IMG/VR virus record: IMGVR_UViG_3300036791_000116
Coordinates: 1-44,588 of that record
Length of the DNA: 44,588 nt
DNA from: a virus
Reading direction: 5' to 3' (one strand)
Program-made: the position numbers and the translations under genes
Shown here: positions 13,123 to 43,975 of the stretch, piece by piece
How the letters are laid out: every line of letters begins with the position of its first letter
Numbering within the stretch: the stretch's first letter is position 1
Notes under the pieces: generated by a model
Database searches by the model: none
What the model saw: the letters and a program-made list of their open reading frames with translations, nothing else
What the model was told of the DNA's origin: nothing

Positions 13123-13124
13123 CT

Positions 13125-16079: not shown

Positions 16080-16092
16080 GTTTGAGTCAAAC
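16080..16092. repeat. 13-bp dyad motif copy
   Basis: GTTTGAGTCAAAC, between the stop at 16108 and the SD/ATG at 16066. Confidence 0.9.
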
Positions 16093-17019: not shown

Positions 17020-17512
17020 TTCCAGTGCTCCTCTGTTTGACGCGGTAGTGATAGAGTTTCCCGATCGGCTCGAAGCCAACCATCTTGATTAGCTTGTCCA
17101 TTCCCTCATCGTTCCCTCCGCCTGTGTAAGTAGCTCCAATGATAGTCGCCTTGCGTGCGATTGCCCAATCGCGATAAGCGGTCATCAGCTTCATTGCATT
17201 TGGCAGCGTGCGCCACTCCGGTAGAATAAAGAAGAATATGTCATTGCATACACGATCCCAAGAGAACGCCATCGTTACACAGTACGCACCGATGCCACCG
17301 ACAAGCTCTTCGCGATCATTCAGCAGAACAAAAACCATAAAGAACCCATCGTTATTCACATTCTGTTCTAGCATGAACCTGATACGCGACGGATCAACGA
17401 CCACGCCTTTGTAGTTTGGTAGTTTTGGAATCTCGCGTGCGGCATGTTCAATGATACCTGGGATATCGATTGCCGAATAGCGCCGAACGTGTGTCTTGCG
17501 TATTGTTGACAT
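16991..17512 (-). CDS. GNAT-like acetyltransferase-fold protein (173 aa)
   Basis: ELVGGIGAYCV...FFFILPEWRTLPNAMKLMTAYRDWA...MVGFEP resembles the GNAT core. The ATG has no SD and lies 3 nt from a motif copy. Confidence 0.5.
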   Translation of the reverse strand: MSTIRKTHVRRYSAIDIPGIIEHAAREIPKLPNYKGVVVDPSRIRFMLEQNVNNDGFFMVFVLLNDREELVGGIGAYCVTMAFSWDRVCNDIFFFILPEWRTLPNAMKLMTAYRDWAIARKATIIGATYTGGGNDEGMDKLIKMVGFEPIGKLYHYRVKQRSTGNVSTEYASR

Positions 17513-17515
17513 AGT

Positions 17516-17528
17516 GTTTGACTCACAC
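17516..17528. repeat. 13-bp dyad motif copy
   Basis: GTTTGACTCACAC. Contains the tail-fibre stop (17523-17525) and lies 3 nt from ATG 17512. Confidence 0.9.
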
Positions 17529-19381: not shown

Positions 19382-19394
19382 GTTTGAGTCAAAC
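19382..19394. repeat. 13-bp dyad motif copy
   Basis: GTTTGAGTCAAAC, between the stop at 19401 and tail-fibre ATG 19367. Confidence 0.9.
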
Positions 19395-21227: not shown

Positions 21228-21240
21228 GTCTGAGTCAAAC
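21228..21240. repeat. 13-bp dyad motif copy
   Basis: GTCTGAGTCAAAC. Contains the stop of the 21235 gene and lies 9 nt from ATG 21218. Confidence 0.9.
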
Positions 21241-22142: not shown

Positions 22143-22155
22143 GTTTGAGTCACAC
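22143..22155. repeat. 13-bp dyad motif copy
   Basis: GTTTGAGTCACAC, between the stop at 22159 and ATG 22124. Confidence 0.9.
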
Positions 22156-22158
22156 AGG

Positions 22159-22869
22159 CTAACTGGTGAACTGTTGGATACCAAGAAATCCACCGTTGCC
22201 AGCAACGTTCACGCTATTGTCACCGAACATATCCACGTCGATTCTGGATACGCCGTCCAGCGTCATAAGCGGTTGATACGTCCCACGTGGATCACCAGAG
22301 ACGTTCGTGGCAGGGTCGGTCAGATCGGGCAGCGTGAATACCGCTGGGATCGTGATCGACGATTGCGGAACCAAGACGCCGGCCTCGTGTGCAAACGCAA
22401 TCACGCCCTTATACGGTAGTCCGAGTCCGTTACCGGTGCCGATCGATATGGTGATCGCATTCGTAGACGGCGTAACGGTCCTCACCGAGATGACACGATA
22501 GAATGCCTTCTTGCCTGCGATCGCCGTTGCGCCACCGGACGCGCCTGTAATCCTCTCGACCATAGGCTGACCGATATAGTCCTGCCCAACGACTTCGAGA
22601 ATGTTGGCATTGCCGGGAGCGGCCGACGGCGTAACGGTAATCGTGCGACCGTAAGTCGAGTCCGCAACACCAACGACAGATAACGCAGCAACGCTACCGG
22701 CCACACCGTTCGCCGCCATACCGACCGCAAACTTCGTCGGATTGGCAAGTCCGGGTGTGCCAAGCGAGAAGTTCTGCGGTTCGAGATCGATCATGTCAGA
22801 CGAATACTGCATCGCCTTGACATAATTGTTGATACCCTGCTGACTGAATCTCCTATCTCTCGCGGTCAT
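22159..22869 (-). CDS. structural protein (236 aa), function unknown
   Basis: ATGA overlap with the upstream gene. Gly/Ala/Thr-rich, beta-type sequence downstream of the capsid gene. Confidence 0.65.
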   Translation of the reverse strand: MTARDRRFSQQGINNYVKAMQYSSDMIDLEPQNFSLGTPGLANPTKFAVGMAANGVAGSVAALSVVGVADSTYGRTITVTPSAAPGNANILEVVGQDYIGQPMVERITGASGGATAIAGKKAFYRVISVRTVTPSTNAITISIGTGNGLGLPYKGVIAFAHEAGVLVPQSSITIPAVFTLPDLTDPATNVSGDPRGTYQPLMTLDGVSRIDVDMFGDNSVNVAGNGGFLGIQQFTS

Positions 22870-23777: not shown

Positions 23778-23790
23778 GTTTGAGTCAAAC
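23778..23790. repeat. 13-bp dyad motif copy
   Basis: GTTTGAGTCAAAC, between the capsid stop and the SD of 23765. A half-site CTTGACTCGC lies at 23797-23806. Confidence 0.9.
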
Positions 23791-23809: not shown

Positions 23810-24778
23810 TCAGTTGGTAAGAAAGGCGTGCGTCCTGTAGTTACGCCATGTGCAAAGCTGTCCTTCCCACACGACGCGCCGGCCGGTTGCATCCATTGAC
23901 CACGGAGCGACTAGTTGCTTGATCTTCATGTTGACGCCACGCAGCACGTGCAGCGTCATATATCCGTCGTTGACGAAATACGCCTGATTAGCATTGAGTT
24001 TCTCGTCAAACAGTAATGGAATACCGTTGTGCGTGGTTCCGACAATCCCCAGATTGACAAGTTTTTTGCCAGTTCCGGTAGCGTCGAGATCGATATGCTG
24101 CTTGTCCCGTGCGGCACCCTTGTGCATCCGGTAGATATTGCGTCCTGCAAAGATGACAGTAGGCTGCGGAGAGCTTTGGCCGTCGGTTGACCGATTGAGG
24201 TCAAGTTCTGTGATATCATCGAACGCCTCCTCGATGTTCTCCGGCGTCAGCGTGCCTGTGAAGTCGTAGGACGATGTGCGCCACTGGCTCTCGCTCGCCA
24301 TGCTGATACCGCCGACCGACCCACTGGTAGGATCGACCGGAATGAGATTGCCAAGACCATTCGGGTCGGTTCCAGCGCCGACACTCGTATGGTACGTGGC
24401 GAACTGCCGTGAGATCGATTCATCAAGGGCCATGATCTTGCCCTTGATGATCTTGAAGATCGCCGCCCGACCTTGGTTTTCGTCCTCTTCCTGATCGGAG
24501 ATAATCAGCGATCCGACGACTCGTGACATGAAGTGATTGACTGTCACAAATTCGTTCGTCTGGTTCACCGGCACAGTGTCGTAATACTGCATCGATGTCA
24601 CATTCGGATTGAGGCCGGTAATCAGCGGATTGCTAATCTGCGGACCACCATCCTCGACCACCACACGCTTTTTCGCATGTAGGTACGCACTGACGGTACC
24701 TGAGATCGCAGAAGCCATAATGAGCTTGGCGCGACTGCGAGTCAGCATCGCATTGACAACTGTGTCAAGAGTAGCCAT
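23810..24778 (-). CDS. major capsid protein (322 aa)
   Basis: Gene order is portal, scaffold, then this gene. Size is typical of HK97-fold podovirus capsid proteins. GGAG precedes the ATG. Confidence 0.7.
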   Translation of the reverse strand: MATLDTVVNAMLTRSRAKLIMASAISGTVSAYLHAKKRVVVEDGGPQISNPLITGLNPNVTSMQYYDTVPVNQTNEFVTVNHFMSRVVGSLIISDQEEDENQGRAAIFKIIKGKIMALDESISRQFATYHTSVGAGTDPNGLGNLIPVDPTSGSVGGISMASESQWRTSSYDFTGTLTPENIEEAFDDITELDLNRSTDGQSSPQPTVIFAGRNIYRMHKGAARDKQHIDLDATGTGKKLVNLGIVGTTHNGIPLLFDEKLNANQAYFVNDGYMTLHVLRGVNMKIKQLVAPWSMDATGRRVVWEGQLCTWRNYRTHAFLTN

Positions 24779-24793: not shown

Positions 24794-24806
24794 GTTTGAC
24801 TCAAAC
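24794..24806. repeat. 13-bp dyad motif copy
   Basis: GTTTGACTCAAAC. Contains the scaffold stop (24801-24803), upstream of capsid ATG 24778. Confidence 0.9.
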
Positions 24807-25871
24807 ACCCAGGGAATCCAATGTCTCCTTGAGTATTGCGTCGTACGATTGCCCTATAGGCGCCATGCCGTTCGCCTGTACGAACTGTGGCTGTCCACGC
24901 CCGGTTGGTAGATTTCGTCTCGCCTGTCTCACCTGCCCATTACCATTGCCGGTCATGCGCATGTGGTTCAACTGTATTCTGGCCCACACTTCGCTCATGC
25001 TCATATGCTGAAACTGTGGTTGACTGAGCACTGCGTGAAAGATGGGTATGTACTCCCGCGCTGCGGGGTTCGCGATGAAGAAGCCGTTAACCTCACGCTC
25101 TGTTTCCTGATACACACGCTGGGCCGTTTCTTGCTGCGCAGCTTGATACTGCTCGGCCTGCATCCGTTGTTGCAGTGGGGTCAGCGCCCCTCTGATCTCG
25201 TTCTGAACCATACCCATCAGGGCCTGCGAGTCCACACCGCCGGGCGCAATGCCAATCCGCGTCACGTCCACGCCGGCGGCCGCAGCCATCGTCAACAGCT
25301 TTTTGAGCGTCGCCACTGGATCGCGCTTCGCCTCGGCCGCAAGCTGCATTGCCTGAATCGATTCGCCATCGTTCAAACCGAGACGCGCGGCTGCCGTATT
25401 CCGGTCATTGAGTTGCGCCGTGAGCCCCTCGATACGCTGGTGGAACTGCTGCCCTAGCTCAATCGCCCGTGTTAGACGCGATGACAAGTCCTGCGATCGC
25501 GCCTGCTCCGTTGCTAGCTCTCGCCGACTGCGCTGCGTCTCTTGATACATACGGGCCTCGAAGCCCGCCTTGGCAACGACCTTGCCATCGGCACCGACAA
25601 GGTTCCCGCGCTGGTCGGCCTGAACCTCGGCACCACGAGGCAGCGGCCTTTGCTGCTGTTGCCCAGGTTGCTGACGCTGCGGAGCCCTCGCCTCTTCGCG
25701 TCCCTGCTCTCCGTGTGACTCAAACGACTGACCTTCGTCACCGCCGGATTCATACGACTCCGACTCTCCTCCCTCTTCTCCACCGATATCCGACTCGTCC
25801 ATACCAAGGTTGTCCAGCACCATATCCATGGCGCTCTCTGAACCACCGTCCAGGTTCCTGTCTTCTGACAT
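24801..25871 (-). CDS. scaffolding protein (356 aa)
   Basis: Lies between portal and capsid. Acidic N-terminus and Gln/Glu/Arg-rich predicted coiled coil. The TGA stop lies inside a motif copy. Confidence 0.65.
   Translation of the reverse strand: MSEDRNLDGGSESAMDMVLDNLGMDESDIGGEEGGESESYESGGDEGQSFESHGEQGREEARAPQRQQPGQQQQRPLPRGAEVQADQRGNLVGADGKVVAKAGFEARMYQETQRSRRELATEQARSQDLSSRLTRAIELGQQFHQRIEGLTAQLNDRNTAAARLGLNDGESIQAMQLAAEAKRDPVATLKKLLTMAAAAGVDVTRIGIAPGGVDSQALMGMVQNEIRGALTPLQQRMQAEQYQAAQQETAQRVYQETEREVNGFFIANPAAREYIPIFHAVLSQPQFQHMSMSEVWARIQLNHMRMTGNGNGQVRQARRNLPTGRGQPQFVQANGMAPIGQSYDAILKETLDSLGV
25713..25725. repeat. 13-bp dyad motif copy
   Basis: GTGTGACTCAAAC, inside the scaffold CDS (FESH). 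Confidence 0.9.
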
Positions 25872-25880: not shown

Positions 25881-28250
25881 CTATTGCATTGGTGTCATTT
25901 TGGCTAACGGCGACTTCTTGGGTAGAACGGGCGCAGACGCACCACCACCACCACCACCGGAGCCATTACCGGGTGGAGGCTGTGGCGCGCCTGGAGGCCC
26001 TCCCTGCGCAGCGTGCAGAGCCGCTACATGCTGCAACAGGTAGCTCATAATCATCTGTGGGCTGGCCCCTGAGTTCTTCATCTGTAGCACTTGCTGCTTA
26101 ACCTGCATCGGGATATTAGAAAGCAACTGCTCGATGTTCGCTCCAGGCTGCACACCCGGTCCCTGTGTCGGCGATGGCGTTGGCGCACCCGGCGTCCCAG
26201 GGTCTGCGCCACCCGGAGGCTGATCCGGTGCCTGCCCAGGCTGATTGCCGCCCGGTTGCGTACCCGTAGCCGATCCCGTACCCTGCCCGGTCTTCGCACT
26301 GATCTCGGCATCGATCGCAGCCCAATCCTCTGGCTGGATGACAACCTCGGTGAATGCCTGTTCGAGCACCTTGAGCATCACTTTCAGCGTCGCGCCCGGT
26401 GCAGCCTGCGCAAATTGCCCAACGGCCTGCGCAATCTGAATAGCCTCCTTTTTCTTGAATATGCTATTCGGCTTCTCCATACTGCCAGCGACGATTTCCA
26501 TATTGTACGTGCTATTGAGCATCGCGACACTCATAGGCTTAAAGAACTGCCCAAGCGCCGGCCCAATCAAACCGATCACGTCGTCCACGGTCATATACTG
26601 CACACACAATTCGGCAAGCGAAATGGCAATATCCGCAACCGCATCCTCCACAACGTCAACCTTGGCTCCGACCGAGAGCTTCATCGATTCCTGATATGTA
26701 TTAACAGCGTCCTCATTTGTGTTAGTCTTGAACTGCACTCCTCGCAGCGCATCGCTGGTATTGGTGATTCGGTTGATTGCATCCAACAAGTCTTGCTTAT
26801 TAAACAGTTCCTTGTACTGATCCATTCGTGGGTAAAGTGACTCAAACACATCTTGAATCTTGCCCTCGCCGGCCTTGACGCCACAGACATGCTTCTGGTC
26901 ACTCCCGACGTTCTCGCCACGGATGCCGTTTAGCATCTTCTCGATCTGATCGCTGTCCGTCTTGTCAGCGTTGTAGAAGAAATAATCGAACACGGACGTA
27001 CGCATACGTCGTAATTTGCGATTGATGACGTTAATTTCATCCTGCTGGTCTAGATAATACGACGACTCGCCCACGGCCACAGTGCCGCCGGTGCTCATTG
27101 TATAGCCTACAATGTAATATGGATAGAACCGACTGATATTCAGTGGGTCGTCCCATACCCATAACGGCCACGTCCAATCATCTCTGTGGAACAGCATGAC
27201 TCGTCGCGTCAGCTTGTCCCAAATCATGTAACACTCAGTCGTATACATATTCAGATAGGCTGTACGCTCGTCATCCGTGTGGTGCGTACTGTCGATACCG
27301 GCTTCCATCGCCTGTTGCACGAATCCCAAGCCGTCGTCGCGCTTCCCATCCGACGTATCGAACGAAGCCTTATGCGTAGGCTTGTAGATCAGCACACGAT
27401 TTCCGCCTTTGAGATCGTTTGACTCAGACGGCGAGTCGGGATCAGGTATAGTGAACCGCTGCGTGAGCATCGCCGTCGGCAAAAACACGCGCTCGGCCTG
27501 CCAATCCGCATCTGTGCCATCTTGCAATTCGGCATACGGATCGATAATCAGATTATGAGGCAGCACGTTATTCAGGCTGGGACCGCTTGGTTTCATCACT
27601 TCCATATTCATCTCCAAGGCTTCCATCTGCCCATAGAGATTCGATACCTCCTCTTGCGTCTTTGCGACAGCCAATTGCTGCGTAATTTGCGTCAATTGCT
27701 GTACTGCAACCTCTCGCGAGTCGTCTTTTCTGGTGTAATCCAGCTTCAAAACACCAAAATTGGTCAACAAACCGACACCAACACACTTCTTAATCTTCAA
27801 TTTTGCCCGCAGCGTCGTCCTGAACAACGTATTTATCAGCTTCTCCAACGCCTTGCAGAAGTCCTGATCTGTGCTGTCCGACGTACTGACTGTAATGTCG
27901 GGGTTCTTGCTGTAAACCGCCGGTAGCATCACGTTCAGATTCGAGAACACCACATTTTCCGTAACATCGCCGCGCTTAAACACGCCACGGGATGACTCGA
28001 TCGGACGGCCTTGGCTGTTGTTGTAATACCGAAATACCTCATCCCAGGCAATCGTAACCTGCTCGTACGCCTTGATTGCCGCATTGATTCTGCGCTGCCA
28101 CAGCTTGCCCACCGACGAACTGATCGCAATACGGCTACCCTCGTAGATGCGATATACCGGCTCCGGCTCATTGCCGGGCTTCGATGGCGTTGGTGCATCT
28201 TCACCAACATCATCAACATCAGTCTCGTCGGCGCCATATACGTCTGTCAT
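25881..28250 (-). CDS. portal protein (789 aa) with a low-complexity C-terminal extension
   Basis: Large ORF between TerL and the scaffold. C-terminal ~150 aa are Gly/Pro-rich with a Met/Gln-rich helix. The ATG has no SD and lies 2 nt from a motif copy. Confidence 0.75.
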   Translation of the reverse strand: MTDVYGADETDVDDVGEDAPTPSKPGNEPEPVYRIYEGSRIAISSSVGKLWQRRINAAIKAYEQVTIAWDEVFRYYNNSQGRPIESSRGVFKRGDVTENVVFSNLNVMLPAVYSKNPDITVSTSDSTDQDFCKALEKLINTLFRTTLRAKLKIKKCVGVGLLTNFGVLKLDYTRKDDSREVAVQQLTQITQQLAVAKTQEEVSNLYGQMEALEMNMEVMKPSGPSLNNVLPHNLIIDPYAELQDGTDADWQAERVFLPTAMLTQRFTIPDPDSPSESNDLKGGNRVLIYKPTHKASFDTSDGKRDDGLGFVQQAMEAGIDSTHHTDDERTAYLNMYTTECYMIWDKLTRRVMLFHRDDWTWPLWVWDDPLNISRFYPYYIVGYTMSTGGTVAVGESSYYLDQQDEINVINRKLRRMRTSVFDYFFYNADKTDSDQIEKMLNGIRGENVGSDQKHVCGVKAGEGKIQDVFESLYPRMDQYKELFNKQDLLDAINRITNTSDALRGVQFKTNTNEDAVNTYQESMKLSVGAKVDVVEDAVADIAISLAELCVQYMTVDDVIGLIGPALGQFFKPMSVAMLNSTYNMEIVAGSMEKPNSIFKKKEAIQIAQAVGQFAQAAPGATLKVMLKVLEQAFTEVVIQPEDWAAIDAEISAKTGQGTGSATGTQPGGNQPGQAPDQPPGGADPGTPGAPTPSPTQGPGVQPGANIEQLLSNIPMQVKQQVLQMKNSGASPQMIMSYLLQHVAALHAAQGGPPGAPQPPPGNGSGGGGGGASAPVLPKKSPLAKMTPMQ
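26835..26847. repeat. degenerate 13-bp motif copy (2 mismatches)
   Basis: AAGTGACTCAAAC, inside the portal CDS (FESL). Confidence 0.45.
27417..27429. repeat. 13-bp dyad motif copy
   Basis: GTTTGACTCAGAC, inside the portal CDS (SESN). Confidence 0.9.
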
Positions 28251-28252
28251 CG

Positions 28253-28265
28253 GTCTGACTCACAT
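28253..28265. repeat. 13-bp dyad motif copy (1 mismatch)
   Basis: GTCTGACTCACAT, 2 nt from portal ATG 28250. Confidence 0.7.
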
Positions 28266-28283
28266 AGCTAGAGTACCTTGGGT

Positions 28284-28315
28284 GGGGCGCTTGACAGCAG
28301 GACTGCAAGCGCCCC
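28284..28315 (-). other. perfect 10-bp GC hairpin downstream of the PEP-CTERM-like gene
   Basis: GGGGCGCTTG (28284-28293) pairs with CAAGCGCCCC (28306-28315). No U-tract on either strand. Confidence 0.5.
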
Positions 28316-28351: not shown

Positions 28352-29026
28352 CTACACGACAGAGAGTGACGAGCGTTTCCGACGGAGCCTGTTGAGCCCA
28401 AGCATCCCGAATAGAGCAGTAATCATGCCGGGCAGACCAGCGCCCAATATGGGACCAGGAACTGCACTGATATCAATACCGCCATTGAATTGGCCGGAGC
28501 CAACTGAATTGATGGTATATCGAACCTCGGCGCTGAACGGGTTAGTCTCCAATGCGAAGCTAGTGACATCGGCCGAAGCCGAGTTTGTCGTAACCACTGG
28601 GGTCGCCGCCAGCAACACGCCATTGATGAACGTCTGCTCCATTACGTTCCATCCGGTAGTGAGGCCGGTAACAGAGAACTCGCTTAAGAACGACTGGAGC
28701 GTTCCGGTGCCAGTGAGCCCCGCCGCGGTAACATCGAGGATCAGTTGATGATTACCGACAGCATTCGCCGCGATGTCCAGTGTGTTGGTGTTCAACTCAG
28801 CAGGCACGGCAAGCGCACTAGCCGAATTGATCGTCAGCGAATTGAGTAGGAAGGCAGCACCAAAATCGATGTTGCTGATGTCGAGAGTCGGCAAGCCACC
28901 ACTGTTGATCGTGTCAACCAGAACACCATCAGCCGTAGCATTGAGTGTGATGTTGTCAGCCCTTGCAGACGCCATTCCTAGTCCGACGCCAAGCACAGCG
29001 ACGGTAGCCAGTAGCAGTTGCCTCAT
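28352..29026 (-). CDS. secreted protein with a PEP-CTERM-like C-terminal sorting signal (moron)
   Basis: Signal peptide MRQLLLATVAVLGVGLGMASARA. Thr/Asn/Leu-rich beta-type body. C-terminus VPGPILGAGLPGMITALFGMLGLNRLRRKR (Pro motif, TM helix, basic cluster). AGGAGAG SD. Hairpin downstream. Confidence 0.7.
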   Translation of the reverse strand: MRQLLLATVAVLGVGLGMASARADNITLNATADGVLVDTINSGGLPTLDISNIDFGAAFLLNSLTINSASALAVPAELNTNTLDIAANAVGNHQLILDVTAAGLTGTGTLQSFLSEFSVTGLTTGWNVMEQTFINGVLLAATPVVTTNSASADVTSFALETNPFSAEVRYTINSVGSGQFNGGIDISAVPGPILGAGLPGMITALFGMLGLNRLRRKRSSLSVV

Positions 29027-29062: not shown

Positions 29063-29075
29063 GTTTGACTCACAC
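29063..29075. repeat. 13-bp dyad motif copy
   Basis: GTTTGACTCACAC, between the TerL stop at 29078 and the PEP-CTERM-like gene. Confidence 0.9.
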
Positions 29076-29077: not shown

Positions 29078-30589
29078 TCAGTACACTTTGTGATCTTCGA
29101 CTTCATGCCAATACGACCACTTGGGTGGCATCGCGTGCTCTGGCACAACAATCTTGCTCACTTCCGGCAGATACGAAAGCATATACTTTAGCGCATTCAT
29201 CGCATGGTCATTCGCATCCGTGGGCTCGTCAATACGCTGACCCATTGTATTCTGTTTCCAGTAATACGCCGTCATTTCGTCGCCAATGAATGCCAAATCG
29301 TCTGCGAAATACAGCAGCGGGCTCGGATCTTCCTTCGTGATTATATGTGGAACGCCCTTCTTTCCAGCCAAATAAGAATTAACCTTCGCAATGCCTGTGA
29401 CAATATCGTTGCTCGACGGGCGCATATAAATCCTGTCATCCTGATACAGCTTCGCAATTGTCGCTCCCGTCTCTCGCATCCCAGCAACAACAACTTTCTT
29501 GAATATCGCAGGATCGGCATGAATCCGATTGTTGAACATCAGCAATCCAGCATACTTTGCTCGTATATCTCTGATCGCTTGCGGCTGGAGATTGTAAGGG
29601 AAGTCGCTCTGGTAATACCCATCCAGTATAATGACTCTCCCACGGTCGTCCACGAAACCCATCAAATAACAACTCGGTGACACTATACCAAAATCATAAG
29701 ACTCAATTGCCTGAATCTGAACGTGGCGAAGTAGACACTCCGCAAGATAATTCTCGGCCTCCTCACGCGATATGGTGTGGACCGACGGGTCGTAATCAGG
29801 ATGGACCAAGCCCTCGAAGGCAACCCATTTTCCGAGCAGGAAACGGTCGCGCATCTGGCCTTTGTAAGTTGATTCGAGCCCAACAATGTAATCATGTGAT
29901 AAGTTATGCTTATTCGCATAAGTATCACTCTCAAACAACTCAATAATAGGCATACCCGTATCGGTATCAACAAGCAACTTCTCCACACGCTGGCCAGTCT
30001 TCAACCACAACAAATATGGCTGTATGAGTTCCTTGTAGAACCAATTGTGTGATGGGTTTGCCGTAAGCATAAGCCAACGCGGGCCTGTGGCGGGCATGGA
30101 CATATCTTCGTCGTCCGCCTGATAAGGCGTGTCGCCTCGAAGACGACCAAGGAGATCAAAGAAATCTTTGTGTATGATACCTGGGTCCTCGATCTGATCG
30201 ACCCCGACCCAATCATACGTTGCGGATAGAAGATTACTCGTCGAACTCCCATCATTGCGAGCCCTCCCGCGCTGCGATATGTACCGGAAATTGACAACCG
30301 AGCCATTCTTCATGTAGCACGTGTTGTCATCAATCGTGGGCTTTTTCAGTATCCAATCGATCGGACACCACTTGAAGAACACCTTGCGCAGTGTGTCATT
30401 CAGCTTCGGGTACGTCTCTCGCGCTAGCAATCCATTGCAGCCTGGATAATCCTTGACCAGCTTCAATGCCTTGACCGCTAGCGCCGTCGTCTTACCGTTC
30501 GCAAACGCACCACCGAATACCTGTATCTTCGCCCGGCTATGGTAGAAGCCGGACTGCACAGAACCTTCGATGAGCTTGTAATTCGGCAT
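29078..30589 (-). CDS. terL: terminase large subunit
   Basis: Walker A FGGAFANGKTT and Walker B WVGVDQIED. C-terminal RNaseH-like nuclease motifs (SYDFGI..., DANDHAMNALKYM). The ATG has no SD and lies 2 nt from a motif copy. Confidence 0.9.
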   Translation of the reverse strand: MPNYKLIEGSVQSGFYHSRAKIQVFGGAFANGKTTALAVKALKLVKDYPGCNGLLARETYPKLNDTLRKVFFKWCPIDWILKKPTIDDNTCYMKNGSVVNFRYISQRGRARNDGSSTSNLLSATYDWVGVDQIEDPGIIHKDFFDLLGRLRGDTPYQADDEDMSMPATGPRWLMLTANPSHNWFYKELIQPYLLWLKTGQRVEKLLVDTDTGMPIIELFESDTYANKHNLSHDYIVGLESTYKGQMRDRFLLGKWVAFEGLVHPDYDPSVHTISREEAENYLAECLLRHVQIQAIESYDFGIVSPSCYLMGFVDDRGRVIILDGYYQSDFPYNLQPQAIRDIRAKYAGLLMFNNRIHADPAIFKKVVVAGMRETGATIAKLYQDDRIYMRPSSNDIVTGIAKVNSYLAGKKGVPHIITKEDPSPLLYFADDLAFIGDEMTAYYWKQNTMGQRIDEPTDANDHAMNALKYMLSYLPEVSKIVVPEHAMPPKWSYWHEVEDHKVY

Positions 30590-30591
30590 GT

Positions 30592-30604
30592 GTGTGACTC
30601 AAAC
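30592..30604. repeat. 13-bp dyad motif copy
   Basis: GTGTGACTCAAAC, 2 nt from TerL ATG 30589. Confidence 0.9.
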
Positions 30605-31633: not shown

Positions 31634-31646
31634 GTTTGACTCAGAC
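31634..31646. repeat. 13-bp dyad motif copy
   Basis: GTTTGACTCAGAC, touching the stop at 31646 and upstream of the SD of the TerS-like gene. Confidence 0.9.
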
Positions 31647-32623: not shown

Positions 32624-32636
32624 GTTTGAGTCAAAC
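32624..32636. repeat. 13-bp dyad motif copy
   Basis: GTTTGAGTCAAAC, between the leader terminator and the first leftward gene. Confidence 0.9.
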
Positions 32637-32640
32637 AGCA

Positions 32641-32706
32641 ACAAAAAGAGGAGGCCGAGCAACCGCTGCAACGTACATGGCCACACGTACTCGGCACCCG
32701 GCCTCC
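32641..32706 (-). terminator. leader terminator/attenuator between PL and the first leftward gene
   Basis: On the minus strand, GGAGGCCG (32706-32699) pairs with CGGCCTCC (32657-32650). The stem encloses a foldable 41-nt insert and is followed by TCTTTTTGT (32649-32641). Confidence 0.55.
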
Positions 32707-32773
32707 AAGCTGAATGGGTCCTCGTCGTGCGGATGGGAGGAAGAATCACCGCAAAAGTCCATTCAACACACGT

Positions 32774-32802
32774 ATTATGGCACAAAAATTGCATGTTGTC
32801 AA
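32774..32802 (-). promoter_or_regulatory. leftward promoter PL for the structural arm (sigma70-like)
   Basis: Minus strand reads TTGACA (32802-32797), 17-nt spacer ACATGCAATTTTTGTGC, CATAAT (32779-32774). A-rich sequence lies upstream of the -35. Confidence 0.7.
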
Positions 32803-32860
32803 GCACTATTTTTCGCGGTGATAGCAACCTGATATCAAATCACTATCAATTTATGGTGCT

Positions 32861-32873
32861 GTTTGAGTCAAAC
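32861..32873. repeat. 13-bp dyad motif copy
   Basis: GTTTGAGTCAAAC, non-coding, 59 nt upstream of the PL -35. Confidence 0.9.
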
Positions 32874-33028
32874 GATGGACAATGTGGGGGGATAGTGTGG
32901 AGGACCGGATGTACTATATGGCTCATGGTGTATGTGTGCCGCTGCGCGGCCCCCACACCCCATTCGCCGACCGCCGCCGCCGCACAAACCGGACCGCTGA
33001 CCTGGGGGGTGCTTCGCAAAGACAACTA

Positions 33029-33056
33029 AGTGTACCACATTCACGCACCTTGTCAA
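33029..33056 (-). promoter_or_regulatory. second leftward promoter (extended -10 type)
   Basis: Minus strand reads TTGACA (33056-33051), 16-nt spacer, TGG-TACACT (-10 at 33034-33029). Operator 33077-33093 lies 20 nt upstream. Confidence 0.45.
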
Positions 33057-33076
33057 GCATTATTTTCACATTTACC

Positions 33077-33093
33077 TGCGACATATTGTCGCA
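33077..33093. promoter_or_regulatory. 17-bp palindromic operator, copy 1
   Basis: TGCGACA-TAT-TGTCGCA, perfect inverted arms. Confidence 0.75.
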
Positions 33094-33227
33094 CCCTACA
33101 CCCCACGCGCACACCCCACACGTGCCATCAGCGCGTAAGCGCGTGACTTGGCGGTTCACTTTTTGTTCTTCATTTTCGAGCCGTGAATGCGCCTTTGGCG
33201 AATGCCTCCATCCTCCCTCCGGGCTAG

Positions 33228-33270
33228 GGGTTAGAACACTCCTCGCCGCAGGCACGGACTGTTCTAACCC
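33228..33270. other. 11-bp perfect inverted repeat in the control region
   Basis: GGGTTAGAACA (33228-33238) pairs with TGTTCTAACCC (33260-33270). 21-nt spacer. Confidence 0.6.
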
Positions 33271-33297
33271 ATGGCCATTTCACGCTCCACATACCCT

Positions 33298-33310
33298 GTT
33301 TGACTCACAC
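33298..33310. repeat. 13-bp dyad motif copy
   Basis: GTTTGACTCACAC, non-coding control region. Confidence 0.9.
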
Positions 33311-33403
33311 ACGACCCCAGTGGCGGTATCACAACACCACAAATTGCACGATGTCCGGTTCCGCCGTCGTCCTACCTCCCCCCCATCCCCCCCTCAATGT
33401 CAA

Positions 33404-33420
33404 TGCGACATGTTGACGCA
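33404..33420. promoter_or_regulatory. operator-like site, imperfect copy
   Basis: TGCGACA-TGT-TGACGCA (one arm mismatch). Confidence 0.45.
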
Positions 33421-33454
33421 GTTTGGAAAACGGGGCGGAGGGTCGAGGGTCTAG

Positions 33455-33502
33455 CAACAACCAATCAACAACCAATCAACAACCAATCAACAACCAACAA
33501 TT
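33455..33502 (+). repeat. iteron array A: 11-bp unit CAACAACCAAT, about 4.3 copies
   Basis: Three exact tandem copies at 33455-33487, then CAACAACCAACAATT. Confidence 0.9.
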
Positions 33503-33551
33503 CAGAATGCAAGAAACCCCCGTAGAATGGGCACAAGTTGGTAGTGTGCGA

Positions 33552-33589
33552 TTTGTTTGATTGATGTTTGATTGGAGATTGGTTGTTGG
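33552..33589 (-). repeat. iteron-like array C (TTG-rich on the plus strand)
   Basis: TTTGTTTGATTGATGTTTGATTGGAGATTGGTTGTTGG: degenerate complements of the array A unit. Confidence 0.6.
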
Positions 33590-33670
33590 AGCCTCCCTTT
33601 GAAAGTGATTTTGCGGCGGGCAAATGTGCATTTTGGGGTCCGTGCCGGCGGGGCGCGTCGATTGTGGCAT

Positions 33671-33683
33671 GTGTGAGTCAAAC
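33671..33683. repeat. 13-bp dyad motif copy
   Basis: GTGTGAGTCAAAC, between iteron arrays C and B. Confidence 0.9.
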
Positions 33684-33704
33684 GTGTGGTTTGATAGATC
33701 GGCA

Positions 33705-33743
33705 TTTGTTGGTTGTTGGTTGATTGTTGGTTGATTGTTGATG
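33705..33743 (-). repeat. iteron array B, inverted relative to array A
   Basis: The minus strand reads CAACAATCAAC x2, then CAACAACCAAC, with an 11-bp period. Confidence 0.8.
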
Positions 33744-33845
33744 AAGTAGGTAGATGGGCGAAATGTCGGTTGCTTGGGAACATTCCGTGCCTTGCGGCGA
33801 GGTATGTTCCCAGCCCGGATGAATGATGGGACGCACGCCGCGTGA

Positions 33846-33904
33846 TCGATGGGGGCGATAGGCGATAAGCGATAGGTCGATAGGCGAGGGCGATGGGCGA
33901 TAGG
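33846..33904 (+). repeat. tandem array of about seven 7-8-bp CGATRGG units
   Basis: CGATGGGGG CGATAGG CGATAAG CGATAGGT CGATAGG CGAGGG CGATGGG CGATAGG. Confidence 0.8.
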
Positions 33905-33968
33905 CTCTAGAATGCGCTAGGAAGGCCGCTGGCGCGCTTTCGTGGGTCGGCCGCTAGGGTGGTAGCCT

Positions 33969-33981
33969 GTTTGACTCAAAC
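33969..33981. repeat. 13-bp dyad motif copy
   Basis: GTTTGACTCAAAC, 70 nt upstream of the P1 -35. Confidence 0.9.
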
Positions 33982-34050
33982 GCACGTGCGGCCATTTGTG
34001 GGCTTCCTAGAGGCTATTGCGGCAGGATGGACGCACATTGAAAAAATCGG

Positions 34051-34078
34051 TTGACCGACATGGGGAAGTCGCTATGTT
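34051..34078 (+). promoter_or_regulatory. rightward promoter P1 (sigma70-like)
   Basis: TTGACC (34051-34056), 16-nt spacer, TATGTT (34073-34078). A-tract TTGAAAAAATCGG immediately upstream. Confidence 0.5.
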
Positions 34079-34103
34079 GGCGATATCGAATCGATAGGGA
34101 GGT

Positions 34104-34127
34104 TGATTGCTGATGGATTGCTGATGG
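34104..34127 (+). repeat. 12-bp tandem duplication
   Basis: TGATTGCTGATGG / GGATTGCTGATGG. Confidence 0.7.
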
Positions 34128-34483
34128 GTCGCGGGGCCGCTTAGTCCCTCGCACGCGGGTCTTGCCAATGCCACCCGCTCGAAGCCGGAACCGAGAACCG
34201 GCAGGCAACCATAGTGGCGCCCAACGTTCCATTCGGGACGCCTGTTAGGGTAGTGTTACGCGTGATGGCGGACATGAGAGTAGCAGGCGCGGTGAACGTG
34301 ACTTAGCTCGAACCATCAGGGTAGGCAAAAGCTTGCGCGTTAGTGCGGCGCGCTAGTGAGTAGCCTGTAAGTCCTGGAACGGCATTGTTGTTAGCTGGAG
34401 GTTGTAGGGAAAATGAGAACGGCTCATTCGGGCTTAATTGCTCGCAATGGCCATGCAAAAGACAATCAATGGAGTGCAGAACT

Positions 34484-34807
34484 ATGACAGATAGAGAAAA
34501 GGCAAAGGTGGCGCTTGCCGCAATTGCGGATATTGTTGTCGAGACGTTAGAAGAGGCACGACATACGGCGCTTGGCGGAATACCCGCTGGGCATTTGTAC
34601 GCAATGCTTATGGGTGTCATGTCACTATCGACGTTTCAGGCGATCATGAACGGCTTAGTTGTCTCTGGTAAGGTGACCAAAGACGGGCTGGTCTATCGTG
34701 TTGGCGACGCCATTTGCGGGCGTCGCAAAGACGGAACTAATCCGCGCGCTATGGGAACCAATCCGCGCGCTGTGGGGACTAATCCCAGAGCGGACGGAGA
34801 CAGGTAG
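34484..34807 (+). CDS. small winged-helix-like protein with a C-terminal 3x GTNPRA repeat (107 aa)
   Basis: Listed as 34385..34807. ATG 34484 is preferred because a GGAGTGCA box (34471-34478) lies 5 nt upstream. IPAGHLYAMLMG-MSLSTFQAIMNGLVVSGKV resembles a wHTH. Confidence 0.6.
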   Translation: MTDREKAKVALAAIADIVVETLEEARHTALGGIPAGHLYAMLMGVMSLSTFQAIMNGLVVSGKVTKDGLVYRVGDAICGRRKDGTNPRAMGTNPRAVGTNPRADGDR

Positions 34808-35569: not shown

Positions 35570-35598
35570 TTGACAAAACTGTGACAGTGTGGCATAAT
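35570..35598 (+). promoter_or_regulatory. rightward promoter P2 (sigma70-like)
   Basis: TTGACA (35570-35575), 17-nt spacer, CATAAT (35593-35598). The operator ends 1 nt upstream of the -35. Confidence 0.75.
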
Positions 35599-35640: not shown

Positions 35641-36711
35641 ATGGCGATTAAGTTCCGTTTGAGTCAAACAGTGAGTAAACCGGCCCTTGTCGCGGGTCGG
35701 AAGGCGGTTCCCGCAAGGGCTCCGGCTGCGGTGGTCAAGGCTCCGCCGAAGGGTAGGGCTGAGACTGCGGCGGAGAAGGCCGCAAACGAGACTACCGGCG
35801 GTCTGGTGCCGATTAAGAAGTCGGCCTTGTCGCTGGACGTTGGTCCTCGCGTCATCCACGCGCTCTTTGCTAACTCGGAGCGTTTGGACGCGATCACCGA
35901 GGAGATGCACATACTCAAAAAGAGTTATGCGCAGTTGTCGGAACTAACCGCTGCCATTACCAAGGCGGCGAAGGCCGATACCTCTATCGACCTTACTTCC
36001 GCGTTCTCTGGGGAGGTTAAGCAGATCGCCAAGTTGAATAACCAGCTTGGCATTGCGCTTGGCTTCCGCGTGGTGCGGAAGGGTGAGCCTGACAAGAGCG
36101 GCGTTGCCTATGACGCCGTGGTGACCAGTGAGAGCGTCGCTGATTGCTTCCCCATGCCTGGGGAGGACAAGAAGCTGCCCGCGATCCGGCGGAAAGAAAC
36201 CTTCCGCAGCAACTTCATGACACAACTTAAGAAGTGTGCCATGGCCGCGCACGCGATCATCGAGAACGATATCGATGCGCGGTTCGACACCAAGGCTGGC
36301 ACGTTGCTGATCTCAGGACCGGCCGTTCGTAAGCATTTCGGGCAAGAGCGAGTTTTGCTCGATGAGCGGAAAACGGTCGGGAGTGGCGACGCCAAGGTGG
36401 AGTTGAGCGAGAAGCCCAGCTTCACGGCGCTTGCCAATATCGGCGCGGCGTCGCAAGGTGTCGCGCCAGCGGTGGCTGGCTCCGGTGGAGCGCAGCACCG
36501 TGGCAACAACCCAGGAACCGTTGGCGGTACGCAAGCCGTCGCGGCAACGAAAGCTGCCGAGGTTACGGGCAAGGAGAGCATCGACGCGGCGATCCTGACT
36601 ATCTGCAAGGCGCTGCGGACGACGCTGGAAAAGGCCAAGGAACTGAGCAAGAACGCCATTGCGGCTCTTGAAGAGACAAAGAACGCAATTGACGTGCGGC
36701 TCACGAACTGA
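35641..36711 (+). CDS. early protein of unknown function (356 aa) with an Ala/Lys/Pro-rich N-terminal tail
   Basis: Driven by promoter TTGACA-17-CATAAT (35570-35598). GGAGG lies 8 nt upstream of the ATG. Motif copy at codons 6-10. Confidence 0.75.
   Translation: MAIKFRLSQTVSKPALVAGRKAVPARAPAAVVKAPPKGRAETAAEKAANETTGGLVPIKKSALSLDVGPRVIHALFANSERLDAITEEMHILKKSYAQLSELTAAITKAAKADTSIDLTSAFSGEVKQIAKLNNQLGIALGFRVVRKGEPDKSGVAYDAVVTSESVADCFPMPGEDKKLPAIRRKETFRSNFMTQLKKCAMAAHAIIENDIDARFDTKAGTLLISGPAVRKHFGQERVLLDERKTVGSGDAKVELSEKPSFTALANIGAASQGVAPAVAGSGGAQHRGNNPGTVGGTQAVAATKAAEVTGKESIDAAILTICKALRTTLEKAKELSKNAIAALEETKNAIDVRLTN
35657..35669. repeat. 13-bp dyad motif copy
   Basis: GTTTGAGTCAAAC, codons 6-10 of the 35641 gene (RLSQT). 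Confidence 0.9.
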
Positions 36712-36753: not shown

Positions 36754-36766
36754 GTTTGACTCACAC
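36754..36766. repeat. 13-bp dyad motif copy
   Basis: GTTTGACTCACAC, after hairpin 36723-36750 and before the GGAGTGCA box. Confidence 0.9.
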
Positions 36767-36982: not shown

Positions 36983-36986
36983 CGTA

Positions 36987-37023
36987 GACCCAGGCGTGGA
37001 GCGAGCGCCTGGGTCTTTTTTTT
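36987..37023 (+). terminator. rho-independent terminator
   Basis: GACCCAGGCG (36987-36996) pairs with CGCCTGGGTC (37006-37015). Followed by T8 (37016-37023). Confidence 0.85.
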
Positions 37024-37147: not shown

Positions 37148-37176
37148 TTGACAGTGTGCTATCATTATGATATAAT
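37148..37176 (+). promoter_or_regulatory. rightward promoter P3 (perfect sigma70 consensus)
   Basis: TTGACA (37148-37153), 17-nt spacer, TATAAT (37171-37176). Confidence 0.8.
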
Positions 37177-37246: not shown

Positions 37247-37259
37247 GTTTGAGTCACAC
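37247..37259. repeat. 13-bp dyad motif copy
   Basis: GTTTGAGTCACAC, in the leader of the P3 transcript. Confidence 0.9.
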
Positions 37260-37525: not shown

Positions 37526-37813
37526 ATGGCCAAGAGCTTTAAGGAGAAGTTTGATATGAGCGTTGAGAATGAAGACCACATTCGGTATCTGGCTGGCGTC
37601 CATACGACGATGACGGCGCTGGAGTTGACGATCGACGAGTACGGATTGCCGAAGGTGATCGATATGCTGACGGACATATGCCACGGTAAGGCAAATCATG
37701 TCCGTGAGTACGGGGCCGATCCAGAGGCGGCGAAGCATTGGGATAGCATTGCAGAGCGGCTCTCGAAGATGGGCGGTAGTTTGACTCAAACCGAAGCGGA
37801 GTGCAGCGAATGA
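37526..37813 (+). CDS. hypothetical protein (95 aa)
   Basis: ATG 37526 lies 4 nt after GGAGTGCA (37514-37521). Confidence 0.6.
   Translation: MAKSFKEKFDMSVENEDHIRYLAGVHTTMTALELTIDEYGLPKVIDMLTDICHGKANHVREYGADPEAAKHWDSIAERLSKMGGSLTQTEAECSE
37779..37791. repeat. 13-bp dyad motif copy
   Basis: GTTTGACTCAAAC, in the 3' end of the 37526 gene (SLTQT), upstream of the next SD. Confidence 0.9.
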
Positions 37814-38355: not shown

Positions 38356-38368
38356 GTGTGAGTCAAAT
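38356..38368. repeat. 13-bp dyad motif copy (1 mismatch)
   Basis: GTGTGAGTCAAAT, 1 nt after the stop at 38354. Confidence 0.8.
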
Positions 38369-38926: not shown

Positions 38927-39219
38927 CAGTTGTCGAGAACTGTCCAAAATGCGGCGGCACGCATTTTGGATCCTATACATGCCCAATTGTGAGGACGACC
39001 ATGAAGCTAAGTGAGCTAAAGGCCGGAGATGTCCTGATCGCTGACGATGGATTTACGTGTTTGCGCGCAGGGCCACACACTGTCGAGGCTTCGGAAAACG
39101 GCCTGTTTATCAAATGCGATGTTGGTAGGCATTTCCTCACCGCGCAGGAAGATCGTGAGACTGGAGAACTTGTAGGGTTTTCGTTTGACTCACACAAGCC
39201 TGGACAGGAGCCGAAATGA
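38923..39219 (+). CDS. hypothetical protein with an N-terminal CxxC...C motif (98 aa)
   Basis: ATGA overlap. The 3' end carries a motif copy in frame (FDSH). Confidence 0.6.
   Translation: MTVVENCPKCGGTHFGSYTCPIVRTTMKLSELKAGDVLIADDGFTCLRAGPHTVEASENGLFIKCDVGRHFLTAQEDRETGELVGFSFDSHKPGQEPK
39183..39195. repeat. 13-bp dyad motif copy
   Basis: GTTTGACTCACAC, in the 3' end of the 38923 gene (FDSH), upstream of the SD of 39216. Confidence 0.9.
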
Positions 39220-39901: not shown

Positions 39902-40381
39902 ATGACTACGCGATCCAAGATGAAGGAAGGCGATGAAGGCGTACAGGCGGTACCGAGCACATTCCAAGGAATGATCGCCAAGGATATGGGCCTTGTGACA
40001 AACCAACTGCTCGGCAAGATCAAACAGGATACGGGCAGTGGTGCCAACGTGTCGCGTGTGTTGGCAGAGTTGTTCATGTGGAACTGGATCAGGAAGTTTG
40101 CCGATAGCAAGTACGAGAAGCTGCTTGTAGCGGCTAAGGAGGATGGCGTGCTCGGCGATCTGATAGGCCACGAGCCCGGCAGCTATGTTGCTGCGGAGAG
40201 TAGGCATTTCGTGGTGACAGTCAATATCAGCGAGCCGGTGCGCCGCTTCGATCCTGACGTGCTTGCAGGCTGGGCGCTGTCTGCGTACAAAATTCCGGTC
40301 ATCGTGCTGAAAGAGCAGATCGACAAGGCAAAGACTCCTACGCAGTCGCAGGTACGTGTCACGATCACGGAGCGACAGTAG
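39902..40381 (+). CDS. hypothetical protein (159 aa)
   Basis: AGGAGGAAG SD. Followed by a motif copy and two hairpins. Confidence 0.65.
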   Translation: MTTRSKMKEGDEGVQAVPSTFQGMIAKDMGLVTNQLLGKIKQDTGSGANVSRVLAELFMWNWIRKFADSKYEKLLVAAKEDGVLGDLIGHEPGSYVAAESRHFVVTVNISEPVRRFDPDVLAGWALSAYKIPVIVLKEQIDKAKTPTQSQVRVTITERQ

Positions 40382-40383: not shown

Positions 40384-40396
40384 GTTTGAGTCAAAC
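40384..40396. repeat. 13-bp dyad motif copy
   Basis: GTTTGAGTCAAAC, 2 nt after the stop at 40381 and before the tandem hairpins. Confidence 0.9.
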
Positions 40397-42077: not shown

Positions 42078-42329
42078 ATGGCAGAATATGAAAGGATCAC
42101 GCTAATGAGTGTGGACAAGATCGTGGACTTGACCGGCAACGCGAAGGAATTTGCTGATTTGTACTGCGAAAGTACTAGCATTGATGGACGCAGGACGTTC
42201 AACATTGCGCTAGTGAGCCTGCTTATCAACGTGTACGAGGCGGGCTTCGATAACGGCAGGCGTGAAGCCCGCTTGACTCAAACATTCGAGAGCGTACGGG
42301 ACGAGGAGAGCCTGGAGCCTGACGAATGA
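42078..42329 (+). CDS. hypothetical protein (83 aa)
   Basis: Operon context. Motif variant GCTTGACTCAAAC in frame (RLTQT). Confidence 0.6.
   Translation: MAEYERITLMSVDKIVDLTGNAKEFADLYCESTSIDGRRTFNIALVSLLINVYEAGFDNGRREARLTQTFESVRDEESLEPDE
42271..42283. repeat. 13-bp dyad motif copy (1 mismatch)
   Basis: GCTTGACTCAAAC, in the 3' part of the 42078 gene. Confidence 0.7.
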
Positions 42330-43678: not shown

Positions 43679-43975
43679 ATGGAGTTGGAAGATGATGGTG
43701 TGTTCGAGTCTGCGATTCAAGCTGCGATTAGGCAACAGGGAGCGGAGCAGGAGCCGATAATCAGGGCGGTGGCGGAGGCCGTCAGGCACTTCCTGATTAA
43801 CATCGAGCACATATCGAGTCAGATGGAACGCCTCTCGGACTCGATAGAAGGCGGTGTGAGCAACGGGTCGGAGGAGCGTTCGGCTGCGGCACTAGAGCGC
43901 ATTGCGGATGCGCAGGAGGTAATTCAGAAGACGCACCAAGAGGCATCGTCTGAGTCAAACAAGAGGAAGCGGTAG
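43679..43975 (+). CDS. hypothetical acidic protein (98 aa)
   Basis: Listed as 43601..43975. ATG 43679 follows AAGGAGG and is clear of the nuclease stop at 43661. Confidence 0.6.
   Translation: MELEDDGVFESAIQAAIRQQGAEQEPIIRAVAEAVRHFLINIEHISSQMERLSDSIEGGVSNGSEERSAAALERIADAQEVIQKTHQEASSESNKRKR
43948..43960. repeat. 13-bp dyad motif copy
   Basis: GTCTGAGTCAAAC, in the 3' end of the 43679 gene (SESN), upstream of the SD of the ATPase gene. Confidence 0.9.

Follow-up and report, generated by a model that had tools for sequence, protein, structure and literature searches.

We analysed a window of 44,588 bases, the whole of IMG/VR virus record IMGVR_UViG_3300036791_000116 from an uncultured phage, in which a symmetric 13-bp motif (hereafter the dyad) recurs at 40 unique sites and in which the genes for TerL, the portal protein, a giant 2155-aa protein and an acetyltransferase begin immediately downstream of a copy and lack a Shine-Dalgarno (SD) sequence. 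At such starts, both in the window and in its relatives, the central base of the dyad is almost always G on the sense strand, and this orientation lock is absent from the copies that precede genes with an SD. We hold the chances about even that the dyad is a DNA site which doubles as a minimal SD for low-copy genes carried on ordinary polycistronic mRNAs.

All four junctions lie on the minus strand and are present as an earlier sequence-only reading of the window had quoted them. For TerL the junction is GTTTGAGTCACAC-ac-ATG 30589 (30587-30604, motif at 30592-30604), and the TAG of the upstream open reading frame (ORF) stands 2 nt before the motif. The giant protein starts at GTGTGAGTCAAAC-ag-ATG 13122 (13120-13137), in a 64-nt gap with no upstream cistron ending nearby, and the acetyltransferase starts at GTGTGAGTCAAAC-act-ATG 17512 (17510-17528), where the TGA of the motif (17523-17525) is the stop codon of the tail fibre gene. 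The portal junction is ATGTGAGTCAGAC-cg-ATG 28250 (28248-28265); a 20-codon mini-ORF ends at the TGA of this motif, and a strong hairpin without a U-tract, GGGGCGCTTG-N12-CAAGCGCCCC (28281-28312, minus strand), lies between this junction and a neighbouring cassette gene.

The absence of an SD at these four genes, also claimed in that reading, was borne out when about 55 window genes were scored for the energy of the anti-SD duplex: all four reach just -2.2 kcal/mol, and about 45 other genes score -5.6 or stronger (to -12.7), mostly between -6 and -12 kcal/mol. Apart from a few genes with uncertain starts that also score weakly, the four are the only well-supported SD-less genes of the window, and they are also the only ones with the motif 2-3 nt from the ATG. 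Each of the four ATGs is the first start codon of its ORF, and the four N-termini are conserved in relatives with synonymous changes. The MPNYK N-terminus of TerL is conserved from residue 1 in all relatives, with its first codons written synonymously as ATGCCGAAT, ATGCCGAAC, ATGCCTAAC or ATGCCCGAA; none of the TerL genes examined in relatives has a strong canonical SD, and some have weak SD-like stretches (AGGA, or GAGGTGAT with a GTG start). A fifth example, the helicase, did not survive closer inspection. Its ATG 1865 is internal (Met24), and the gene starts at GTG 1796 behind an AAGGAG SD (-8.8 kcal/mol); homology to the helicase of a relative extends upstream of Met24, and that relative uses an AAGGAG-N5-ATG start with the motif directly past the ATG. 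The copy at 1854-1866, at codons 20-24 from GTG 1796, is therefore internal and not a start site. The further statement that most other genes place an SD between the motif and the start holds for about 15 SD-bearing genes, but most others have no motif within 45 nt of the start.

The distance d, in nt from the 13-mer to the downstream start codon, was compared in nine genomes of the window's clade, and the sister clades served as an independent set. The nine genomes gave d = -2 (n=8), -1 (n=1), 1 (n=2), 2 (n=19), 3 (n=4) and 4 (n=6), no case at 0 or at 5-8, and many cases at 9 or above, with a peak at 11-14 and with an SD present wherever d is at least 9. Three layouts were recognised. In class I, the stop codon is followed by the motif, the SD and the ATG; in class II, the stop codon is followed by the motif, 0-4 nt and the abutting ATG, with no SD; and in the third layout, an SD-like GGAG or AGGTG directly adjoins the motif on its 5' side, at a distance of 10 nt from the start codon, and the last two bases of the motif are the AT of the ATG. 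Sites with this upstream SD have C at the centre. Class II occurs across lineages at the genes for TerL, the portal, the giant protein and the acetyltransferase, at a 605-aa gene, a 144-aa gene and others, whose orthologues elsewhere are in class I or have no motif. The portal is in class II in two close relatives, has motif plus SD or no motif in others, and is in class II again in sister clades. SD-less starts flush with the dyad have arisen repeatedly, in different genes and lineages. Capsid and scaffold genes have canonical SDs in every clade examined, and TerL, the portal and the 605-aa gene are repeatedly SD-less.

Within the window's clade, the centre of the dyad is G on the sense strand at 23 of 24 unique class II sites (the exception is a mis-called start), compared with 35 G to 34 C in class I (Fisher 5e-5). 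The sister clades repeat this pattern, with G at 38 of 41 abutting sites against 20 G to 23 C at SD-bearing sites (Fisher 4e-6), and their abutting starts fall at d = 0 (n=9), 1 (n=7), 2 (n=16), 3 (n=8) and 4 (n=1), again with none at 5-8 nt. The same rule is visible within a single gene: the TerL motif has a central G wherever the gene is SD-less and a central C where GGAG or AGGTG sits just 5' of it. Class II sites are also enriched for GTGTGA left arms, and perfect palindromes make up 3 of 24 of them versus 31 of 69 in class I (p=0.006).

In the mRNA, a G-centred abutting site reads (G)UGAG-N6-9-AUG, and GAG lies 6-9 nt upstream of the start at 61 of 65 abutting sites; in the canonical SDs of the window, the spacing from GAG to ATG peaks at 8 nt and is mostly 5-9. 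The early genes of the phage share a box, GGAGTGCA(R)AAC-ATG, which closely resembles the abutting motif TGAGTCAAAC-NN-ATG. This box consists of an SD with a conserved 8-nt spacer and is found on the plus strand at 34471, 35109, 36772, 37270, 37514, 37798 and 38397; GGAGTGCA itself occurs nine times versus two expected, seven of them on the plus strand of the early region, and is present in relatives too. The position of the box implies that the true start of ORF 34385-34807 is at about ATG 34484.

In the reading that we favour, a dimeric phage protein would bind the dyad, at about one copy per kilobase, and the copies would occupy small intergenic gaps where these are present and the interiors of long genes where there are none. 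Most genes would carry a separate SD in the class I order, with at least 9 nt from motif to ATG. The four low-copy genes would have no separate SD and an ATG flush with the edge of the site, and a G-centred site would supply the truncated SD core GAG at the usual SD spacing of this phage, followed by an A-rich, little-structured spacer before the AUG. Re-initiation by ribosomes that end the upstream gene would probably help in most cases. The outcome would be weak initiation, suited to proteins needed in few copies, and the mRNAs would be ordinary polycistronic transcripts from host-type promoters. The empty interval at d of 5-8 would be a natural consequence: 9 nt is the least room that an SD and its spacer can occupy, and beyond 4 nt the GAG of the motif would be too far away. 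The orientation lock and the spacing window are direct observations, from which we infer the use of GAG as an SD and translational coupling.

Several points weigh against this interpretation. The pairing of GAG with the presumed anti-SD of the host comprises just 3 bp at -2.2 kcal/mol. In some SD-less TerL genes, 14-23 nt separate the motif from the start. Coupling cannot apply throughout, since no cistron lies next upstream of the giant and portal genes of the window. In relatives, genes and their starts were called with a simple codon-bias caller, and the compared sites are phylogenetically related, so that the Fisher p-values given above overstate independence. The hunt for a protein that binds the dyad yielded, from Pfam on 30 small proteins, just a sub-threshold ribbon-helix-helix (RHH) match, and a PDB profile search was not significant.

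The close fit between start codons and sites could also reflect compaction alone. On this account, which we judge unlikely, the motif would have no role in translation, the genes would be started at a low level by termination-reinitiation or in an SD-independent way, and the ATG would simply be pressed against the site by tight packing. An ATG at d=2 is exactly flush with an extended 17-bp form of the dyad, SD-bearing genes likewise stand at the minimal possible distance, and at most abutting sites the stop codon is within the motif or stands 0-2 nt ahead of it, all of which would be expected from packing; the TerL genes that stay SD-less with the motif 14-23 nt away fit as well. Packing leaves unexplained, however, the near-absolute central G in two independent clade sets, the enrichment of GTGTGA left arms together with the depletion of perfect palindromes, and the restriction of a central C to sites with an upstream SD.

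Near-leaderless mRNAs were one of the two explanations offered in the sequence-only reading, the other being a motif-dependent start of translation. The second is retained here in modified form, and no support was found for RNA cleavage or leaderless transcripts. A leaderless mechanism appears quite improbable to us. In it, a G-centred motif would cause transcription to start, one specific strand to be nicked or the RNA to be cut a few bases short of the ATG, and 70S ribosomes would read, with no SD, an mRNA beginning at or beside the AUG. It would suit the lack of a canonical SD, a motif 0-4 nt from the start and the use of ATG at all four window starts; the orientation lock means that something strand-specific is read, and no cistron directly precedes the giant and portal genes, with the strong hairpin standing before the portal junction. 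But the element is symmetric and is oriented about 50:50 ahead of SD-bearing genes, internal copies are conserved inside genes, the spacing from motif to ATG takes values from 0 to 4 nt instead of a single one, and in some relatives an SD stands 5' of the motif, which a motif-formed 5' end would remove. Leaderless genes have a -10 element about 7 nt upstream of the ATG, usually with a -35 element. The four window genes resemble them in having ATG starts and no canonical SD, and differ in the variable spacing, in the upstream SD of some relatives and in the lack of promoter elements at the required distance: no sigma-70-like -35/-10 pair was found upstream of the four SD-less starts, and consensus promoters occur only at 35570, 37148, 32802 and 33056. 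No window protein was recognised as an RNA polymerase, sigma factor, integrase or repressor, and a check of the giant protein for a DxDxD motif was negative.

Another possibility, about which we are similarly doubtful, is that the dyad is both an evenly spaced array for a phage dimer and a dedicated, SD-independent, G-centred start signal. The RNA of the motif might recruit ribosomes via a phage or host factor, or a near-leaderless mRNA might result if, just beyond the motif, one specific strand were nicked, transcription began or the RNA were cleaved; GAGTC plus 4 nt ends exactly at the motif edge. If this were true, the family would possess its own gene-start code, in use at about half of the motif-adjacent genes in sister clades.

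The DNA side of the favoured reading, in which the dyad is a protein-binding site that also serves as a minimal SD, depends on the structure and distribution of the motif. The core TGASTCA occurs 41 times versus 6.3 expected, a count reached in none of 100 shuffles. The degenerate copy at 76-88 (within ORF 12-380) recurs at 44537-44549 through a terminal assembly overlap of 127 bp, which leaves 40 unique sites. Drawn as a logo, the motif is a symmetric 13-mer, GTKTGA-S-TCAMAC, which weaker outer CY/RG positions extend to the 17-bp CY-GTKTGA-S-TCAMAC-RG, and the flanks outside these 17 bp show no further conservation. Relative to gene direction, the central base is G at 21 and C at 19 of the 40 sites, and the two kinds of site follow one another along the genome in no alternating order. 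Half-sites standing alone show no enrichment (the two half-sites number 58 and 55, with about 37 of each inside full sites).

Relatives hold 0.7-1.4 motif copies per kb, and a scan of IMG/VR with the 15-mer found 49 clade loci at 0.76 copies per kb and 71 non-clade loci with one chance match each. Between clades, the arms change jointly (GTTTGA, GTGTGA, GTATGA), with RTKTGA in nearer clades and GTGTGA/TCACAC or GTATGA/TCATAC in clades whose TerL is 56-63% identical. In clades with TerL about 50% identical (L214, which is IMGVR_UViG_3300019872_000006, and also L209, L213 and L215), TGASTCA is absent and another dyad, CTACAG-N3-CTGTAG, is found instead, with 24 copies in 17.5 kb (about 1.4 per kb) versus 0.01 expected. 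As with the motif of the window, one copy of that dyad lies in the loop of a terminator hairpin and one immediately follows an ATG. Our literature search on the motif sequence returned no relevant paper.

Copies are distributed by distance rather than by gene. Their density is 0.76-1.1 per kb in three genome regions, compared with 0.95-2.48 genes per kb, and the coefficient of variation of their spacing is 0.48, as against 0.97 when positions are random and 1.14 when 40 gene starts are drawn at random. About 28 of the 40 lie between ORFs or in a non-coding control region and about 12 inside ORFs. The copy in the DNA polymerase gene (4461-4473, encoding LFDSH) is conserved at the nucleotide level in all 11 relatives: in CTG TTT GAC TCA CAC, the synonymous positions are invariant in 11 of 11, and the sole amino-acid change, F to C, is a T-to-G change that the motif tolerates (TTT/TGT; the last codon is CAC or CAT). 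Symmetry, spacing and conservation are all direct observations, and from them we infer protein-DNA binding: since the motif is symmetric, evenly spaced and clade-specific, with covarying arms, it is most likely a duplex-DNA site for a dimeric phage-encoded protein rather than a promoter or an RNA hairpin. Homology breakpoints are enriched three to four times near motif copies, although gene boundaries are a confounder of this enrichment.

A weak candidate for the binder is a 68-aa RHH-like protein (1283-1489, plus strand) that is conserved across the clade. Its Pfam matches, to TacA1 (E=0.002) and to a NikA-like family (E=0.02), are both below the family cut-offs; a homologue bears the JGI label DUF1778; and its AlphaFold2 model predicts a beta-alpha-alpha arrangement (pLDDT 75), with which Foldseek found no significant match.

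It is also conceivable, but highly improbable in our view, that the motif acts at the RNA level, as a small hairpin or as a site for an RNA-binding protein or RNase that would control translation or stability cistron by cistron. The motif adjoins ribosome-binding sites, one copy forms the loop of a terminator hairpin, and perfect copies allow a 5-bp stem with a 3-nt loop. However, variation at positions 3 and 11 is uncompensated within sites (GTGTGA...TCAAAC is common), so that about half of the copies break the stem, both orientations are equally used, the copies are spaced by distance and not by gene, and four of them lie in the non-coding control region.

A number of other roles were considered and rejected. 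A simple RNA hairpin was dismissed for want of compensating changes at positions 3 and 11, and long-range pairing between the RNAs of G-sites and C-sites because the two kinds do not alternate. A phage promoter is incompatible with a symmetric motif in both orientations and inside genes, in a phage with no RNA polymerase or sigma factor found, and mimicry of sigma-70 -35/-10 elements (through TTGACT in the motif) would place the transcription start inside the downstream gene. Avoidance of CcrM/GANTC or of restriction was set aside in view of the undepleted GANTC (156 sites, with 55 GASTC outside the motif), a Chi-like or uptake-sequence-like single 7-mer in view of the lone half-sites, which are not enriched, and a strict spacing rule in view of gaps of up to 5.4 kb in some relatives.

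The remaining copies illustrate the range of placements. In the leftward structural genes, class I sites precede ATG 13926 (13938-13950, AGGAG, d=11), ATG 16066 (16080-16092, TAGGAG, d=13), the tail fibre ATG 19367 (19382-19394, weak SD, d=14), ATG 21218 (21228-21240, AGGTGA, d=9), whose orthologues in five other lineages are in class II, ATG 23765 (23778-23790, AGGAG, d=12), the major capsid protein ATG 24778 (24794-24806, cacGGAG, d=15), the TerS ATG 31619 (31634-31646, GGGAGG, d=14) and ATG 32609 (32624-32636, d=14), the first gene of the leftward operon. In the rightward genes, class I comprises the site at 36754-36766, where the motif is followed by tGGAGTGCAAAAAG and then ATG, and those ahead of ATG 37282 (37247-37259, d=22), ATG 37810 (37779-37791, d=18), ATG 39216 (39183-39195, d=20) and ATG 43978 (43948-43960, d=17); a further copy (38356-38368) lies 40 nt upstream of ATG 38409.

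Copies at gene ends include those after the stops of genes 22159-22869 (22143-22155) and 39902-40381 (40384-40396), one in the 3' end of ORF 42078-42329 (42271-42283), one whose TGA (6130-6132) is the stop codon of the DNA polymerase (6127-6139), and one 2 nt past the TerL stop codon (29063-29075) which, along with 28253-28265, flanks the gene for a 224-aa cassette protein. The copy at 982-994 is the loop of a terminator-like hairpin, GGCCCGGTGCT...AGCACCGGGCC followed by TTTT, and the same arrangement is seen in one relative. Near gene starts, copies fall at codons 5-9 of the dNMP kinase gene (3117-3129) and at codons 6-10 of a 356-aa early gene (35657-35669), the latter about 52 nt downstream of the start point of a strong sigma-70 promoter. 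Internal copies are also found in the giant gene at 7501-7513 (lineage-specific), at 9962-9974 in an Ala/Pro-rich linker and at 11168-11180 (kept in four relatives), in a scaffold-like gene, 24801-25871 (25713-25725), in the portal gene at 27417-27429 and, as a degenerate copy in the window only, at 26835-26847, and in the exonuclease ORF 42504-43661 (42872-42884), where the TGA is the stop of ORF 42326-42877 and the copy is retained by 5 of 6 lineages. The non-coding control region has four copies, at 32861-32873, 33298-33310, 33671-33683 (between inverted iteron arrays) and 33969-33981.

The closest known kind of element is the repeat of Cluster O mycobacteriophages, a 17-bp dyad (5'-TGTTCGGNNNCCGAACA) with more than 30 copies per genome and no meaningful orientation, which is located in short intergenic gaps, at gene 5' ends and in gene interiors, is clade-specific and flanks insertions and deletions (PMC4351075). 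Its authors proposed binding by a dimeric protein and named no regulatory role (PMC4351075). The two have in common tens of copies, dyad symmetry, lack of orientation, mixed placement, clade specificity and an association with indels, and they differ in sequence, half-site spacing and host phylum; moreover, no link to SD-less starts or to orientation at starts was reported for Cluster O, whereas the present dyad appears to act as a ribosome-binding site in one orientation. Cluster K mycobacteriophages carry 13-bp Start-Associated Sequences (SAS, 5'-GGGATAGGAGCCC) 3-7 bp upstream of mostly ATG starts, at the position of the ribosome-binding site and across subclusters on non-homologous genes, for which a role in translation initiation was proposed but is unproven; SAS are asymmetric, have one orientation and a full AGGAG core, and occur in 11-19 copies at non-structural genes (PMC3203893). 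The abutting subset described here (24 + 41 unique sites, in many gene families) is likewise a few nt upstream of ATG, but unlike SAS the motif is palindromic, occurs genome-wide in both orientations, offers just GAG, and serves starts with only a minority of its copies.

Stoperators are asymmetric sites, oriented with transcription and bound by the monomeric immunity repressor of temperate phages. In Cluster A phages (L5, Bxb1), they are sites of about 13 bp in short intergenic regions of both genome arms, to which a phage protein binds and which exert their effect downstream of promoters (PMC9283540). The present motif shares with them its scattered placement, length of about 13 bp, intergenic location and putative protein binding, and is set apart by its symmetry and by the third of its copies that lie inside genes; no integrase or repressor was found in the window, where the RHH-like protein is a weak candidate for the binder. 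What is new here is that a palindromic repeat, spaced by distance, has a fixed orientation only at the sites where it apparently acts as a ribosome-binding site.

The phage itself is podovirus-like, with two gene blocks and a GC content of about 55%. The first 127 bp of the window are exactly duplicated at its end (1-127 = 44462-44588), so that the assembly is circular or overlaps at its termini and the genome measures 44,461 bp. A rightward early and replication block runs from about 34.5 kb across the window origin to 6.1 kb (AAA_24 ATPase, SSB-like protein, Dda-like helicase, dNMP kinase, DNA polymerase, exonuclease), and a leftward structural block runs from 32.6 kb down to 6.2 kb (TerS, TerL, portal, scaffold-like gene, major capsid protein, tail fibre, acetyltransferase and the 2155-aa protein, a Pro/Ala-rich virion protein with a VanY-like peptidase domain). 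Near-consensus sigma-70 promoters with an extended -10 (TTGACA-17-TATAAT with TG) lie at 35570-35598 and 37148-37176 on the plus strand and at 32802-32774 and 33056-33029 on the minus strand, and therefore the host RNA polymerase is used. Together with strong intrinsic terminators at 36986-37016 and about 971-1005, they suggest a host with E. coli-like promoter recognition and delimit the early and late operons. Nothing close was found among cultured phages in INPHARED (best TerL match 26% identical), and the GTDB genomes searched contained no relatives and did not identify the host; IMG/VR holds dozens of relatives with TerL 46-97% identical.

The non-coding control region (32640-34480, about 1.8 kb), which lies between and around the divergent promoters and contains the four dyad copies listed above, is a likely replication origin. 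It includes inverted iteron arrays (CAACAACCAAT x3.9 at 33455-33497 and GTTGATTGTTG x3 at 33708-33740) and seven copies of GGCGATA at 33854-33905. The 224-aa gene (28352-29026) occupies a variable slot between TerL and the portal, bounded by dyad copies 28253-28265 and 29063-29075; relatives have no homologue there and carry unrelated or shorter inserts. The major capsid protein (23810-24778) is 95-99% identical among relatives whose other proteins reach just 50-90%, and still 83-87% identical in clades with TerL about 60% identical, which is unusually strong conservation or recent exchange. ORFs 42326-42877 and 42504-43661 overlap by 374 nt in different frames, and tblastn in distant relatives matches both (37-66% and 60-81% identity, respectively); they could be two genes that truly overlap, or the result of a frameshift. 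The AAA_24 (Sak4-like) ATPase seems split between ORF 43978-44463, which has the Walker A motif, and ORF 12-380, which opens with an hhhhTAHE Walker-B-like stretch; the split could reflect two separate genes, a frameshift or a mistake of assembly at the terminal overlap. A peptide repeat, GTNPRA(L/M/V)G, is found in the giant protein (aa 943-958, about 10260-10300) and also three times at the C-terminus of a small early ORF, as a 21-bp tandem repeat at 34733-34785. The rightward block closes with a DUF4326-family gene (6173-6442, E=1e-24), which is convergent with the end of the structural operon.

Short repeats scattered through phage genomes, such as the Cluster O dyad and the SAS of Cluster K, have been known for more than a decade and, to our knowledge, have no established function. 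The phage family described here offers an unusually clean test system, in which one dyad can be read in two ways. Its central G/C amounts to a one-base switch, and swapping it should part the DNA-binding role from the translation role, while the natural variation of the arms across clades should track the binding protein. If the reading of the dyad as a DNA site and minimal SD is true, start codons in metagenomic phage genomes could be called better, and it would be seen how a compact genome puts a single element to two uses, as a site on DNA and as a weak, tunable ribosome-binding site for virion and packaging proteins of low copy number.

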